DNA from: Sphingopyxis sp.
Lineage (GTDB): Bacteria > Pseudomonadota > Alphaproteobacteria > Sphingomonadales > Sphingomonadaceae
Assembly: GCF_035686825.1 (NCBI RefSeq)
Contig: NZ_DASRYZ010000006.1
Coordinates: 246,126 to 310,125 of the forward strand
DNA length: 64,000 nucleotides
Direction: 5' to 3'
Shown: piece after piece, positions 2,380 to 9,627 of the stretch
How the letters are laid out: the number at the start of each line of letters is the position of its first letter
How positions within the stretch are numbered: the first letter of the stretch is position 1
Translations under genes and position numbers: made by a program
Notes under the pieces: generated by a model
Told to the model about the DNA's origin: nothing
Seen by the model: only the letters and a program-made list of their open reading frames with translations
Databases searched by the model: none

Positions 2380-3441
2380 TTACTTCAGTTCCGCACCATC
2401 CAGCGCGGTCATATTCTTGCCGTTCGCCGCCGCGGTGTCGGCGATCGCTTTCGGCGACACGATCAGCCCCTTGGCGTTGAGGTAACCGCCGTCGGCCGCG
2501 CCCTTCAGGAACTCGGCGACATATTCGGCGAGCCCGGGGACGACACCGACATGCGCCTTCTTCACATAGATGTAGAGCGGGCGCGAACCGGGATAGCTGC
2601 CGTCGGCGATCGCCGCATAGGTCGGCGCGACGCCCTGCACCGGAACCGCCTTGATCTTGTCCTTGTTCGCATCGAGATAGCTGAAGCCAAAGATGCCGAG
2701 GCTGGTCGGGTTCTTGTCGAGCTTCGAGATGATGAGGTTATCATTCTCGCCCTGCTCGACATAATAGGGCGAACCGCGCAGCGTCGTGCACACCGCCTCA
2801 TGCTTGTCCTTGTCGCTGTCCTTCAGCGCCTTCATTTCGGCATTGGCGTCGCAGCCGGTGCCGAGGATCAGCTCCTTGAACGCGTCATAAGTGCCGCTCG
2901 TCGACGGCGGACCAAAGACCGAGATCGCGACCGCGGGCAGCGCCGGGTTCACGTCCTTCCACGTCTTCGCGGTGTTGGGCTTGCCATAGGGGTTCGCCGC
3001 GAGCGCCTTATAGACGTCTTCCTCGGTCAGCTCGAAACCCGGACCGCGCGCCGCCTCACCCAGCGCGATGCCATCGATGCCGATCTGGACTTCGACGATG
3101 TCCTTCACGCCGTTCGCGACGCAGCTGTCATATTCCTTCTTCTTCATGCGGCGCGATGCGTTCGCGATGTCGGGCGTGTCGCCGCCAACGCCGGCGCAAA
3201 AGCGCTCGAAGCCGCCGCCGGTGCCTGTGCTGTCGATCTTCGGCGTCTTGTTGCCCGTCGCCTCGGCGAACTTCTCGCCAACCGTGGTGGCAAAGGGGTA
3301 GACGGTCGAGGACCCGACCGCGCTGATATAAGCGCGCGCACCGCCGCCCGAAGACGCCTGATCCTGACACGCGGACAGCGCCAGCGCGCATGTGGCGGCG
3401 CCAGCGACGCCGAGCATCTTGGTAGCGAATTTCTGCAGCAT
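2380..3441 (-). CDS. pstS: Phosphate-binding periplasmic protein PstS (lipoprotein-type signal)
   Basis: The track ORF is 2380-3510. I place the start at Met24 (ATG at 3441), which gives MLQKFATKMLGVAGAATCALALSAC, a lipobox signal. PstS-family body (SAVGSSTVYPF, STGTGGG). Pho box about 80 nt upstream. Confidence 0.9.
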   Translation of the reverse strand: MLQKFATKMLGVAGAATCALALSACQDQASSGGGARAYISAVGSSTVYPFATTVGEKFAEATGNKTPKIDSTGTGGGFERFCAGVGGDTPDIANASRRMKKKEYDSCVANGVKDIVEVQIGIDGIALGEAARGPGFELTEEDVYKALAANPYGKPNTAKTWKDVNPALPAVAISVFGPPSTSGTYDAFKELILGTGCDANAEMKALKDSDKDKHEAVCTTLRGSPYYVEQGENDNLIISKLDKNPTSLGIFGFSYLDANKDKIKAVPVQGVAPTYAAIADGSYPGSRPLYIYVKKAHVGVVPGLAEYVAEFLKGAADGGYLNAKGLIVSPKAIADTAAANGKNMTALDGAELK

Positions 3442-3522
3442 CGAAAAATCCTGTCGAGGGTCGTTACCGAACCAAGCCGCCACCCCCGCGGCGACTCGCT
3501 GGGTGCCCAATGGGGGTTTTGT

Positions 3523-3540
3523 GTGACGTGTTTGTGACAG
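3523..3540 (-). promoter_or_regulatory. Pho box (PhoB site) of the pstS promoter
   Basis: The minus strand reads CTGTCAC-AAAC-ACGTCAC. This is two 7-bp repeats with a 4-bp spacer (11-bp period), matching the E. coli-type CTGTCAT-N4-CTGTCAT architecture. It lies 82-99 nt upstream of the pstS ATG. Confidence 0.6.
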
Positions 3541-3543
3541 GGG

Positions 3544-3561
3544 GTGTCATGGAAGTGTCAT
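3544..3561 (+). promoter_or_regulatory. Second Pho box, opposite orientation
   Basis: The plus strand reads GTGTCAT-GGAA-GTGTCAT, two identical 7-mers with a 4-bp spacer. It lies 3 bp from the first box and is head-to-head with it. Confidence 0.5.
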
Positions 3562-3592
3562 GATCCGGCCGTGTCGAATGCCCTAGCATCTT

Positions 3593-4078
3593 TTACGGGT
3601 GGACGATGTCTTCCAAGAGCGAATTGACGAAGGTGTTTCTTGATACTTTCGCGTTCTTGCCGAGTATCCCTGCTCTATACCAACGCTCCACATTGGCTAC
3701 CGGGACTACGTAGATCGGCACACTTGGAAATAAAGTAATGTCGGAAAGAATGTAGCCTCGAATGTTCTGGAGCTTAGCGAGGAATCCTGCTTCCTCAAAA
3801 TAGCGGCCTTTCCCAACCTGGGCCGATGGATTGAAATAGACACCACCCCTTGTGATCGAACGCACCTCCCAAAGTCCTCCGTCCGGCGCGCGCAAATCAT
3901 ATCCAGCGCCCTCGGTCGGTGCCAGATCCCAACCTTCATGTGCCCATTTCAATCTACGTTCTATGATGAATGACGCACGACGACCATCGGTCATGAATTC
4001 ATGGACATCTTCTGGCTGCACGCCAAACGCCTGCGCGAGTTGTGCGCAGTCAAATTCGATTTCAAACATATTGTCCAT
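3593..4078 (-). CDS. Putative type II restriction endonuclease (PD-(D/E)XK-like, PvuII-like spacing)
   Basis: 161-aa ORF 64 nt downstream of the methyltransferase on the same strand. GGAGGG lies 5 nt before its ATG. The motif GAGYDLRAPDGGLWEVRSI gives D-X9-E-V-R. The function is inferred, not demonstrated. Confidence 0.5.
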   Translation of the reverse strand: MDNMFEIEFDCAQLAQAFGVQPEDVHEFMTDGRRASFIIERRLKWAHEGWDLAPTEGAGYDLRAPDGGLWEVRSITRGGVYFNPSAQVGKGRYFEEAGFLAKLQNIRGYILSDITLFPSVPIYVVPVANVERWYRAGILGKNAKVSRNTFVNSLLEDIVHP

Positions 4079-4142
4079 ATAGCCCTCCGCTCAGAAGGGC
4101 GGATTAGGACTGATCACGGGAAGAGTCGAATCACCTTTGTCT

Positions 4143-5459
4143 TTAATGACGCTGCAAAAGGACAATTCGGTTTGTGTTAGTCCCCTTATTGTTGTTTCCG
4201 ACGCCCCAGCAATTCGCTGTCTTCGTAAACTCTTGCTGGTTGATCATCACGCCGAGCCGCTTAAATGGCAGCCCTTCGGCAGCCTCCCAAACGAGGCGCT
4301 CCAAGAGGACCTTTCCGTTTCGGACCTCACCAACCTCAAACGCGACCAAGCCTTTCGACTTCAAAACGCGCGCCTGTTCGATCAAAACGGATCGCACCAT
4401 GTTGCGCCATGCCAATTCGCCTTTGTGCATCGAAATCGAAATAGCTTCGACGTCAATTCCCGCGAACCAGCACCGCAACCAGTTGTCATCAGCATATTGG
4501 ACGACGTCAAGGAAAGGCGGTGACGTGACGGTCAGGGCGACCGACGCATCGGCGATGGTAGGCAAATATTCCGCTTGGCCACATAACAGATCAAAGTCGC
4601 AAATTGGGGATGGCGGGCAATCTCGTAGCAGCGATCGCGACTTTTTGAGAATCAACGCCGTAATGTCACGCACAACAGGCGTTTGGTTCCGTTTTTCATT
4701 GATCTTCAGTTGCGATGATATGCTGACCGCCTGATTAGGTGGCAACGAGTAAACAGAGAAAAATCCGTTGGAGTGACCGGTCAACCGATTGATCGCGACC
4801 ATTCGAATCCAATCCCAAACTGGATCAGGGCAATGATTATCCAACGGAGCAACCTGCAATAAATGTTCCCTGAGAACGCAGATGTGCCGGAGAGTCTGGG
4901 GATGATAAAAGGCCAACAGATCGTCGCGAACTTCACAAGGGACGGACCAGTTGATTGATCGAAGCGCGGCCGCCACTTCGGAAAGCGGCGGCACTCGCAA
5001 TCTGGGACGGGTCAGCAGCCTTGACAACGGATTCACATCGTTGCCGAGAGGTCGGCGGCCCATCAACGCGGCTTGAACCGGGGTGGTTCCGCGACCCATG
5101 AACGGATCTAGAACATGATCGCCGGCTGCCGTAGCGCGACTAATGAAGAATTCTGGTAGTTGGGGCTTGAAGCAGGCTCGATAGCTTACCTCATGGATCG
5201 AATGAGCCTTTCGTTGACCCGACGTCCAGAACTCGTTGATCAGATACGGGATGCCCGCTTCATCGATCCGCTCGGTTCGTGCACCAAAGTCGGCGAACGA
5301 CGAAATCTGGTCGATGATATTGCCCGATCGTTGCGGTTCCTGAACGTCGATAGGAAACAGATCGTCAAAATGTGCGAGTGCTCTCAATGCGAGGGGATGC
5401 TCCATAGGCTCTCTCCATAACTGCTCCATGTCTAGAACATTGAGAGAACGAAACTTCAA
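4143..5459 (-). CDS. Site-specific DNA methyltransferase (N4/N6 amino-MTase family, SPPF catalytic motif)
   Basis: The AdoMet motif VLDPFMGRGTTPVQAALMG is preceded by FKPQLPEFFI, and the catalytic motif LTVTSPPFLDVV follows later. The start is uncertain: TTG at 5459 per the track, or ATG at 5429 (Met11). Confidence 0.8.
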   Translation of the reverse strand: MKFRSLNVLDMEQLWREPMEHPLALRALAHFDDLFPIDVQEPQRSGNIIDQISSFADFGARTERIDEAGIPYLINEFWTSGQRKAHSIHEVSYRACFKPQLPEFFISRATAAGDHVLDPFMGRGTTPVQAALMGRRPLGNDVNPLSRLLTRPRLRVPPLSEVAAALRSINWSVPCEVRDDLLAFYHPQTLRHICVLREHLLQVAPLDNHCPDPVWDWIRMVAINRLTGHSNGFFSVYSLPPNQAVSISSQLKINEKRNQTPVVRDITALILKKSRSLLRDCPPSPICDFDLLCGQAEYLPTIADASVALTVTSPPFLDVVQYADDNWLRCWFAGIDVEAISISMHKGELAWRNMVRSVLIEQARVLKSKGLVAFEVGEVRNGKVLLERLVWEAAEGLPFKRLGVMINQQEFTKTANCWGVGNNNKGTNTNRIVLLQRH

Positions 5460-5553
5460 TCATTTTGAATGATATGCCATCCAAACTGGATGAATAAAAC
5501 TAACATGCGACATCCGTTTACGTCCACCAACTTGTGAAAGAAAAGGCAAGACG

Positions 5554-5862
5554 ATGATCCTCATCACCGGCCACGCCATCCTCACCCCCGAGCATCGCGA
5601 GCGCATGATCGCGCTCGGCGCCGAGCATAGCGCGCGGTCCCGCATCGAACCGGGGTGTCTGACGCATCATTGCCATGTCGATGTCGAAAACGACCTGCGC
5701 CTCGTCTTCGTCGAGGAATAGGAGAGTGTCGATGCGGTCCGCGCCCATTTCGCGCTGCCCGCATCGCGCGCCTTCGTCGCGGAGATGCGTGCGCTCTCGC
5801 CCGAGCCGCCCGCGATCCGCATCCATGCCGCCGAGGATATCACCGCGACGCTGATGGGGTAA
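5554..5862 (+). pseudogene. ABM-domain (antibiotic biosynthesis monooxygenase-like) gene with an internal TAG
   Basis: My translation reads MILITGHAILTPEHRERMIALGAEHSARSRIEPGCLTHHCHVDVENDLRLVFVEE*ESVDAVRAHFALPASRAFVAEMRALSPEPPAIRIHAAEDITATLMG. The in-frame TAG at 5719-5721 sits where this family has Trp (..EEW.S..A..AH). Both halves are under 60 aa, so neither appears in the track. Confidence 0.65.
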
Positions 5863-5864
5863 AT

Positions 5865-5968
5865 CTCCCCTCCCATTTATGGGAGGGGTCGGGGGAGGGC
5901 ATGTCCCAATCGCGCGTGGGCGGAATGCTCTACAGCCCCTCCCCAAACCCCTCCCGCAAGCGGGAGGG
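5865..5968. repeat. CCCTCCC/GGGAGGG hairpin repeats (family 3)
   Basis: Hairpins CCCCTCCCA-TTTA-TGGGAGGGG (5867-5888) and CCCTCCCGC-AA-GCGGGAGGG (5948-5968). The same motif class occurs at 24232-24331. Confidence 0.5.

Positions 5969-6732: not shown

Positions 6733-9627
<2,895 letters not shown>

Follow-up and report, generated by a model that had tools for sequence, protein, structure and literature searches.

A predicted Type II restriction-modification cassette in an apparent defence-cargo slot of Sphingopyxis

Within the 64,000-nt stretch of Sphingopyxis DNA analysed here (the window), a segment of low GC content, referred to as the islet, separates the putative Pho boxes ahead of pstS from an ABM-domain gene. 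Its presence raises the questions of where this DNA came from, what its two genes do, and how it came to occupy so narrow a place. The favoured reading, to which a probability of roughly 0.85 is given, is that of a Type IIP restriction-modification cassette whose two genes, both intact, encode an m4C methylase (M) and a PvuII-like nuclease (R), with GTAC as the likely recognition site. The features concerned are as follows.

3521-3562, minus strand: four putative Pho-box half-sites at 11-nt spacing, CATGACAC TTC CATGACAC CCC CTGTCAC AAAC ACGTCAC, read from the sequence
3562-5553, no strand: low-GC variable cargo segment (the islet), from GC content and comparison of sister loci
3593-4078, minus strand: R, predicted Type II restriction endonuclease of 161 aa with a PvuII-like PD-(D/E)XK fold, from PADLOC, AlphaFold, and Foldseek
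4082-4100, minus strand: predicted hairpin GCCCUUC-UGAGC-GGAGGGC in the M-R spacer, with a 7-bp stem in both the MFE and centroid folds
4143-5405, minus strand: M, predicted Type II DNA methyltransferase of 420 aa, from PADLOC, Pfam, motifs, and homologue starts
5406-5553, minus strand: M leader/promoter region, part of the cargo, which also serves the ABM gene as its divergent upstream region
5554-5859, plus strand: ABM-domain gene with a premature in-frame TAG, from translation

The GC content of the islet is 51.9% against 66.6% in the remainder of the window, and all 1-kb segments lying more than 2 sd under the mean GC (0.661, sd 0.035) start within 3001-5001; the islet is the sole compositional outlier in the 64 kb. 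Hand counts given in the original prediction are closely reproduced, 4141-4440 computing to 52.3% (53% by hand) and 2401-2520 to 67.5%, exactly as given. Its remark that codon third positions are A/T-rich is likewise borne out, GC3 being 0.60 in M and 0.53 in R as against 0.84-0.88 in pstS, pstC, and uvrA. The ABM-pstS interval was then compared across 80 Sphingopyxis species loci, a search for empty sites in sister genomes having been proposed from the outset. Far from being present at this position in all relatives, the pair is absent in 79 of the 80 species and is found, as the same pair in the same place, in 1; three loci (L048, L055, and L063) are empty. Given the low GC and GC3, the absence of the pair from these species, and the empty sites in relatives, the islet is horizontally acquired foreign DNA, and its description as the only clearly foreign DNA in the window stands.

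The borders of the islet are the outward side of the outer Pho-box half-site and the last base ahead of the ABM start codon. Across 60 sister loci, conservation reaches the ABM start codon and resumes at the CATGACAC Pho half-site, with an unrelated interior. The conserved ABM gene thus forms the left-hand anchor of a slot and the half-sites, conserved in 60 of the 60 loci listed, form the right-hand one, both outside the cargo. We take the half-sites to be a Pho box by resemblance to the E. coli consensus. The ABM gene had been called dead, which agrees with the TAG found in frame at 5719-5721; relatives have Trp here (EEWES), in open reading frames that are intact at 101-102 aa. At the other end the outer half-site starts at 3562 and the R stop codon (3595-3593) is 30 nt away, as tight as predicted but 2 nt closer than the 32 nt claimed.

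Nothing in the islet suggests a means of its own mobility. The ORF list holds no integrase, transposase, or HTH frames in the islet, and none of at least 60 aa in 3562-5553 apart from M, R, and the shadow ORFs inside them. A C-protein gene is absent from the islet, and the M-R spacer is just 64 nt; no tRNA was found by tRNA scan anywhere in the 64-kb window, and no direct repeats flanking the islet were found by repeat scan. The original prediction had likewise noted the lack of an integrase, transposase, tRNA, or C gene. Cargo ends have no motif in common across the 60 loci, and the tRNA, repeat, promoter, and terminator scans gave nothing that accounts for insertion. An island, IS, or transposon was considered and ruled out, since the marks of such integrative elements (integrase or transposase genes, a tRNA or att target, flanking repeats) are missing.

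Most sister species have other low-GC cargo in the slot, including PARIS, retron, AbiL, pAgo-like, NACHT, and unknown proteins. Among the systems and proteins matched are AriA/AriB, a retron I-C RT-Toprim, AbiLi/AbiLii, an NsnB-like protein, NACHT, Beta_protein with M78, a pAgo-like protein, PD-T4-10_B, and an RT; more than half of the slot cargo proteins have no match to known defence families, examples of unclassified cargo genes being those in L003, L005, L015, L021, L029, L039, and L041. The ABM-pstS interval measures 177-2671 nt at a GC of 0.41-0.60, with cargo of 0.3-2.6 kb and one to three genes. In the empty sites the ABM start codon lies 177-190 nt from the pstS start codon and 77-90 nt from the Pho boxes. 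Judged from the sequences compared, the slot is a recurrent defence-cargo hotspot. The insertion, originally described as very tight, has sharp borders but is not a one-off event. Defence hotspots flanked by core genes have been described for the Pseudomonas aeruginosa and E. coli pan-genomes. The Sphingopyxis slot is like these in being a fixed intergenic position with lineage-varying defence systems, low GC, and no dedicated integrase, and unlike them in consisting of a single intergenic region, 77-90 nt when empty, with exact edges and small cargo.

Between the window and locus L080, nucleotide identity is 90.5% for R, 85.5% for M, 84.5% for pstS, and 86.9% for uvrA; cassette and flanks are about equally diverged, so the cassette has persisted. 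Closer relatives of the window, e.g. L001, have other cargo in the slot. Both observations bear on the proposal that the pair is mainly a selfish addiction module, kept for post-segregational killing rather than for phage defence. Type II restriction-modification pairs can behave as addiction modules, as documented in Kobayashi's work where it is cited in PMC2588503, and a cassette whose divergence from L080 resembles that of its flanks would suit such a role. Slot turnover is free, with L001 and others carrying other cargo, which argues against strong addiction, and addiction would in any case be compatible with defence; as the main reason for retention it is considered very improbable.

The favoured reading, a restriction-modification cassette, draws its first support from M. 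The original prediction placed M at 4143-5459 and R at 3593-4078, two co-oriented genes 64 nt apart, and both open reading frames are present and intact on the minus strand. The M frame is indeed open to a TTG at 5459 (438 aa), but the ATG at 5405 is the more likely start, in view of a GGAGAG 5 nt upstream and of where homologues start and what they cover. Among the matches listed, the closest homologue has 423 aa at 91% identity and begins with the equivalent MEHPL; homologues span 96% of the 438-aa ORF. M matches PADLOC MTase_II PDLC03325 over its full length (E=9.5e-187, residues 39-438) and Pfam N6_N4_Mtase (E=4e-12). Its motif I (DPFMGRGTT) precedes motif IV (TSPPF), both being invariant in 16 homologues. 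Motif IV in the form SPPF is typical of m4C enzymes, and with motif I ahead of it M is predicted to be an N4-cytosine enzyme. No homologues of M were found in the phage collection and only distant ones, at most 43% identical, in the plasmid collection. Relatives of M and R returned by protein searches and cluster look-up are annotated only as 'hypothetical protein' or 'DNA methyltransferase'.

R had been thought to fall outside any family that could be named, a view that must be abandoned, as it belongs to PADLOC REase_II PDLC03550 (E=1.5e-64, 160/160 positions). It has no sequence match in Pfam, NCBIfam, or the PDB, was not found in the plasmid collection, and every member of its family is labelled 'hypothetical' by NCBI. 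The AlphaFold model of R (pLDDT 88.9, pTM 0.85) was compared with the PDB by Foldseek. The best nine matches are all PvuII, at modest E-values (7e-3 to 5e-2), with probabilities of 0.92-0.96 for the top six and 0.54-0.72 for the next three and TM scores of 0.37-0.47 on the query; N-terminal domains of NhoI/Eco15I (ranks 10-19) come next, then RecU and Hjc. The likeness to PvuII is thus modest (E 7e-3, TM 0.42-0.48). From this model the fold of R is predicted to be PvuII-like PD-(D/E)XK. PvuII is a PD-(D/E)XK homodimer of 157 aa that cuts to blunt ends, with catalytic residues D58/E68/K70. R, at 161 aa, has PvuII as its best structural match, and its D61, E71, and R73, invariant in 40 homologues, are candidate catalytic residues with the same spacing of acidic pair and basic residue in a weak hhalign register. 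The third position of the D...(D/E)-x-K motif is an invariant Arg (R73) in R where the canonical residue, found in PvuII, is Lys.

Sequence similarity to PvuII is not significant: hhalign of R against a PvuII sequence gave the expected catalytic-motif alignment at a probability of only 1.4%, and phmmer and hmmsearch of R against the PDB did not find PvuII, just spurious SH3 matches rising above threshold. Homology of R and PvuII at the sequence level was dropped on these grounds. The partner methylases also differ, M having 420 aa with motif I before motif IV and M.PvuII having 336 aa with the reverse order, and a C.PvuII-type controller gene is without counterpart in the islet.

In approximately 70 metagenomic loci R adjoins the M family, in four arrangements (tandem M>R, R>M, convergent, and divergent), and nearly all of the 83 loci with room for R have it beside the M family. 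On the strength of the full-length PADLOC matches, this linkage, and the PvuII-like model of R, the pair is classed as a Type II restriction-modification system. The suggestion that the islet is a restriction-modification and defence candidate is upheld, both proteins matching PADLOC Type II models along their whole lengths. The NhoI and Eco15I domains among the Foldseek matches would also suit R as a modification-dependent PvuII-like nuclease that is not the partner of M. These domains rank below all nine PvuII matches with lower TM scores, PADLOC classes R with Type II REases, and a methyl-dependent nuclease beside a methylase in four orders would be self-destructive unless their sites differed; this is the least probable of the readings considered.

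The recognition site of the predicted system is likely GTAC, as for RsaI. GTAC has 0 sites in the 2-kb islet and is the sole tetranucleotide palindrome missing there; 2.1% of synonymous shuffles of M and R reach zero. In 77 family cassettes 56 sites are observed where 141 are expected (ratio 0.40), and for carrier flanks (225 kb) the ratio is 0.48, with GTAC in both sets ranking first for depletion among the 256 tetramers; in Sphingopyxis loci without the system the ratio is 1.16. GTAC is also the most depleted tetramer in all three identity tiers. Residual sites occur in all 16 flanking contexts, so the 60% loss does not come from avoidance of a longer 6-mer. Word avoidance is indirect evidence, 36 of the 77 cassettes keep at least one GTAC, and the window's own host DNA displays no avoidance (29 observed vs 31.5 expected), a result that fits recent arrival of the cassette without adding positive evidence for GTAC. 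A Type II system with a specificity other than GTAC, unrelated to RsaI, is therefore conceivable; set against the first-rank depletion in cassettes and carrier flanks through all three tiers, the exclusion of 6-mer avoidance, and the agreement of SPPF motif and M length with M.RsaI, it is considered rather unlikely.

The RsaI system of Rhodobacter blasticus 28/5 (CP020470), which recognizes GTAC, is likewise a two-gene Type IIP system of an alphaproteobacterium, and the family of the present pair is common in Rhodobacteraceae (Paracoccus, Stagnihabitans, Maritimibacter, and Gemmobacter). M.RsaI is an m4C enzyme with the product GTA(m4C) (PMC3287169, PMC6256690), as SPPF predicts for M of the window. 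Its length of approximately 409 aa, derived from plasmid sizes in Table 1 of PMC3287169, compares with 411-427 aa for members of the window's M family. PMC2441816 assigns the RsaI REase family to PD-(D/E)XK, as a prediction of the lowest reliability level. The match of the window's system to RsaI draws only on word statistics, on size, and on the type of motif.

A system in decay has also to be weighed, in which M would be an orphan methylase, perhaps with a regulatory role, and the 161-aa protein would lack activity or be no nuclease at all. Homologues of M number more than 8000, a lower bound, against 410-519 for R, so many copies of M may be solitary; Arg replaces the catalytic Lys in R, and the evidence for activity comes from sequence only. 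Yet both open reading frames are intact with every family-invariant residue, R73 is itself invariant and hence no private change, and R is kept beside M in all four arrangements. Homologues of R are 60-93% identical over hundreds of members, which implies purifying selection, and the avoidance of GTAC in carrier genomes would imply an active nuclease. Decay is thus judged improbable, and an intact restriction-modification cassette is preferred.

With respect to expression, the original prediction suggested one M-to-R transcript. A single transcript is plausible, a scan of the 64-nt spacer giving no terminator-like or promoter-like site. Upstream, 5406-5553 is shared only with L080 (77% nucleotide identity) and is absent from L001; a simple scan of this region gave no sigma-70 consensus, and the M promoter was not found. 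The GGAGGG noted ahead of the R ATG (4078) is present at 4088-4083, at 4 nt rather than the 5 nt first given. This Shine-Dalgarno sequence forms the 3' arm of the predicted spacer hairpin, for which the fold z-score is only -1.4. Hairpins of different sequences cover the Shine-Dalgarno sequence in L080, L081, L083-L087, L100, L105, L108, and L113. Family-wide, mean pairing probability is 0.61 vs 0.59 in shuffled upstream sequence, which is not significant, and MAFFT with RNAalifold over the R upstream regions returned no consensus structure since the hairpins are out of register. An RNA structure conserved over the R Shine-Dalgarno sequence throughout the family was rejected on both counts; damping of R translation by a hairpin is suggested for the closest clade. 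In related loci, the third genes that lie between M and R match nothing in Pfam or PADLOC.

From these data we infer a working scheme that covers catalysis, dimerisation, m4C modification, specificity for GTAC, co-transcription, the role of the hairpin, and the exchange of cargo. M would place N4-methylcytosine on the host copies of a short palindrome, and R, as a small homodimeric Mg-dependent enzyme using D61, E71, and R73, would cut the same palindrome when unmethylated, and with it the DNA of incoming phages or plasmids. With GTAC as the most likely palindrome, the system would be of RsaI type. M and R are probably transcribed together, M first and with no controller protein, and the hairpin, by burying the ribosome-binding site of R, may limit its translation. 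Sphingopyxis species would swap defence cargo in the slot, presumably by homologous recombination via the conserved flanks.

The type of system is already known and the R family is catalogued in PADLOC; the cassette is an ordinary restriction-modification one. What may be new is put forward tentatively: an integrase-free exchange site whose base-sharp edges are the ABM start codon and the Pho box, as a possible compact source of new defence genes, together with an R timed by a ribosome-binding-site hairpin without a controller, an unusual D/E-x-R triad, and related cassettes whose M and R can be separated by a third gene, nuclease-like and unclassified. For annotation, a widespread 'hypothetical' family of hundreds of members, with no Pfam or NCBIfam model, is predicted to consist of Type II restriction enzymes of PvuII-like fold. 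Of wider value is the site, a tiny, sharply bounded defence slot beside a putative phosphate-regulated promoter, in which many of the proteins carried by sister species are uncharacterised. In the strain itself, a methylated motif is to be expected from the cassette, probably GTA(m4C), as is a barrier to transformation and phage infection, which would be relevant to the engineering of Sphingopyxis.

The islet at 3562-5553 has a GC content of 51.9%, against 66.1% for the whole window and 66.6% for the remainder. All 1-kb windows more than 2 standard deviations under the mean start within 3001-5001, and the islet is therefore the window's sole compositional outlier, as expected from the original prediction that it is the only foreign-looking DNA here. 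The hand counts behind that claim (53% at 4141-4440; 67.5% at 2401-2520) were reproduced as 52.3% and 67.5%. Third-position GC is 0.60 in the methyltransferase gene M and 0.53 in the small ORF R, compared with 0.84-0.88 in pstS, pstC and uvrA. The features of the region are:

3593-4078, minus strand: R, 161 aa, candidate nuclease
4143-5459, minus strand: M, longest ORF form; likely gene 4143-5405
5554-5859, plus strand: ABM-domain gene, TAG at 5719-5721 where relatives have Trp
6733-9627: uvrA

Both ORFs were confirmed as co-oriented and 64 nt apart. GGAGGG is present ahead of the second ATG, at 4 nt rather than the predicted 5 nt. The M ORF stands as described but its start does not: the closest homologue (91% identical) begins at the position equivalent to ATG 5405, GGAGAG lies 5 nt upstream of it, and these together with homologue lengths of 419-427 aa make 4143-5405 the most likely gene. 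A 12-nt inverted repeat (5378-5389/5438-5449, 92% complementary, 48 nt apart) flanks this start codon and could be an operator or leader structure. ORF and tRNA scans agreed with the predicted absence of mobility and controller genes, there being no integrase-, transposase- or controller-sized ORF within the islet and no tRNA anywhere in the 64-kb window. No flanking repeats of the islet were found.

The M-R pair, or cassette, is a Type IIP restriction-modification system already catalogued by PADLOC, probably of the RsaI type. M matches MTase_II model PDLC03325 end to end (E=9.5e-187), and R matches REase_II model PDLC03550 over 160/160 positions (E=1.5e-64). Pfam covers M only in its AdoMet-binding part (N6_N4_Mtase, residues 74-143) and has no hit in R; no NCBIfam model scores above its cut-off for either. 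Scans with the R alignment yielded 80 metagenome and 8 viral loci, and wherever flanking DNA suffices R adjoins the same M family in nearly all. The arrangements comprise M>R separated by 5-108 nt, M>R interrupted by a third gene, R>M, convergent and divergent. Linkage that outlasts rearrangement is a classic mark of a cognate restriction-modification pair. Composition, PADLOC matches, this linkage and the distribution among relatives thus uphold both the observation and the restriction-modification interpretation of the original prediction.

About one third of related M>R cassettes carry a third small gene between M and R (L082:5347-5937(-), L093:2435-3115(-), L104:1950-2471(+), L089:3273-3824(-), L107:2124-2468(-), L121:3680-3931(-)), which is absent from the window. 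Three unrelated types occur, none with a Pfam or PADLOC match; two show PD...E-x-K-like motifs by eye (GKGYPD...EVK; GKAD...IEVKTS) and the other is a GGWQSLL protein of 83-146 aa.

R homologues number in the hundreds (46-93% identity), every one labelled 'hypothetical protein'; the family, including P0001-P0329, spans Sphingomonadales, Rhodobacteraceae, many metagenomes and 8 IMG/VR contigs. A PDB sequence search with R gave no match. For an AlphaFold model derived from 40 homologues (pLDDT 88.9, pTM 0.85), PvuII accounts for each of the nine best PDB structural matches (E 7e-3 to 5e-2; probability 0.92-0.96 in the six highest-ranking and 0.54-0.72 in the other three; TM 0.37-0.47 on the query), after which come the PvuII-like NhoI and Eco15I domains, RecU and Hjc. 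Residues D61, E71 and R73, invariant among homologues, lie on the model's first two core strands. Hhalign, run with a PvuII sequence, places them gaplessly opposite D58/E68/K70, at a probability of 1.4% that is not significant alone. We read R as a predicted small PD-(D/E)XK enzyme of PvuII-like architecture, in which the third catalytic position is Arg instead of the usual Lys.

GTAC is the sole absentee among the 16 tetranucleotide palindromes in the 2-kb islet; synonymous-codon shuffles of M and R average 3.1 sites, with zero in only 2.1% of trials. Across 77 non-redundant cassettes it is the most depleted of 256 tetramers (56 observed versus 141 expected under a second-order Markov model and 390 from base composition), and 41/77 have none. 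Host DNA flanking the cassettes (225 kb) again has GTAC as its most depleted tetramer (ratio 0.48; CTAG 0.58), versus a ratio of 1.16 (rank 217/256) in 79 Sphingopyxis loci without the system. In cassettes and flanks alike, the depletion persists in each of the three R-identity tiers. Among the sites that remain, every one of the 16 possible flanking contexts is represented; what is avoided is therefore the tetramer itself, rather than some hexamer around it. No such avoidance is seen in the host DNA of the window (29 GTAC sites observed versus 31.5 expected), which fits a recent arrival of the cassette.

Among amino-methyltransferases, N4-cytosine enzymes are recognised by Ser in motif IV and adenine enzymes by Asp or Asn. 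Alignment of 16 M homologues shows both motif I (DPFMGRGTT) and motif IV (TSPPF) to be invariant, with motif I about 190 residues ahead. R.RsaI is probably about 160 aa long. GTAC recognition together with an m4C methylase is known from RsaI, the system of the alphaproteobacterium Rhodobacter blasticus (PMC6256690, PMC3287169). Plasmid sizes in Table 1 of PMC3287169 give about 409 aa for M.RsaI, against 411-427 aa for the M family; the calculation was checked on Dam, Dcm, M.HpaII and M.Sau3AI. Orlowski and Bujnicki assigned the RsaI family, with 11 REases, to PD-(D/E)XK at the lowest of their reliability levels (PMC2441816). Word statistics, M length and motif type thus point to GTAC/RsaI-type specificity, with a probability of roughly 0.6.

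M would methylate host sites and R would cut unmethylated incoming DNA, in a system operating without a controller gene. A simple scan found nothing resembling a terminator or promoter in the 64-nt spacer, so co-transcription of M and R is plausible; nor did it find a terminator from R to the Pho boxes, and transcription may continue toward pstS. The R ribosome-binding site is the 3' arm of a predicted 7-bp hairpin (4100-4082, one G-U pair included). Hairpins of differing sequence cover this element in the closest dozen cassettes; no common structure is alignable across cassettes, and testing against shuffles over the whole family gave a negative result. The hairpin might damp R translation, a suggestion we hold tentatively.

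The ABM gene is, as predicted, dead: its Trp-to-stop change is private. Most relatives have it intact (101-102 aa), and it is frameshifted in L017, L032, L041, L044, L046, L047 and L077. Just 3' lies a G+C-rich imperfect palindrome and repeat (5868-5968, CCCCTCCC...GGGAGGGG, 37-nt arms, 78% complementary) resembling a REP-type element. L080 also retains 72 nt of this intergenic stretch.

The slot, bounded by the ABM start codon and the Pho boxes of pstS, was surveyed through a scan anchored on pstS, with one genome per species, giving 80 Sphingopyxis-group loci. The same pair occurs at the same place in just one of these, L080, a Sphingomonadaceae MAG (amino-acid identity 91% for M and 93% for R); both genes are missing from the remaining 79/80 and are thus not a host-like fixture of all relatives. 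Empty sites were found in L048, L055 and L063, where the ABM start codon lies 77-90 nt from the Pho boxes and 177-190 nt from the start codon of pstS. In most other species different low-GC cargo (0.3-2.6 kb, GC 0.41-0.59) is present, without an integrase.

Slot cargo in sister species
L004, L011 (7598-9842), L016, L054: PARIS, AriA with DUF4435 AriB
L028 (7978-9669), L079: retron type I-C RT-Toprim, E about 1e-162
L051 (1225-3199): AbiLi with RloB-like AbiLii
L037, L007: NsnB-like ATPase
L050 (7936-9804): NACHT protein
L014, L027, L043: Beta_protein with M78 peptidase
L019 (8199-9770): short pAgo-like protein
L033: PD-T4-10_B
L042: reverse transcriptase
L003:8557-9306, L005:8896-9801, L015:1607-2896, L021:3456-4769, L029:8793-9782, L039:2357-3292, L041:8396-9844: large ORFs (249-482 aa), no PADLOC match at E<=1e-5

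Conservation has precise limits on both sides, the ABM start codon and the outer CATGACAC Pho half-site, and no motif is shared at cargo ends across loci. The current cargo supplies the entire upstream region of the ABM gene. The cassette and its flanks have diverged to a similar degree between the window and L080 (nucleotide identity R 90.5%, M 85.5%, pstS 84.5%, uvrA 86.9%), and the closer relative L001 (pstS 91.9%) holds other cargo. The simplest reading is that cargo has been replaced repeatedly by recombination through the conserved flanks. In L081 (1327-6483; GCA_947499975.1) the M-R family lies directly 3' of uvrA, in the order uvrA, 83-aa ORF, M, R; uvrA is a near neighbour in the window too, and its neighbourhood may be a favoured landing area more broadly.

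The slot is a recurrent defence hotspot in Sphingopyxis, and its PADLOC-unmatched ORFs are candidate uncharacterised defence genes. Added here are the recognition of the insertion site as such a slot, the GTAC signal, and a predicted PvuII-like fold for a nuclease family otherwise without a Pfam or NCBIfam model.
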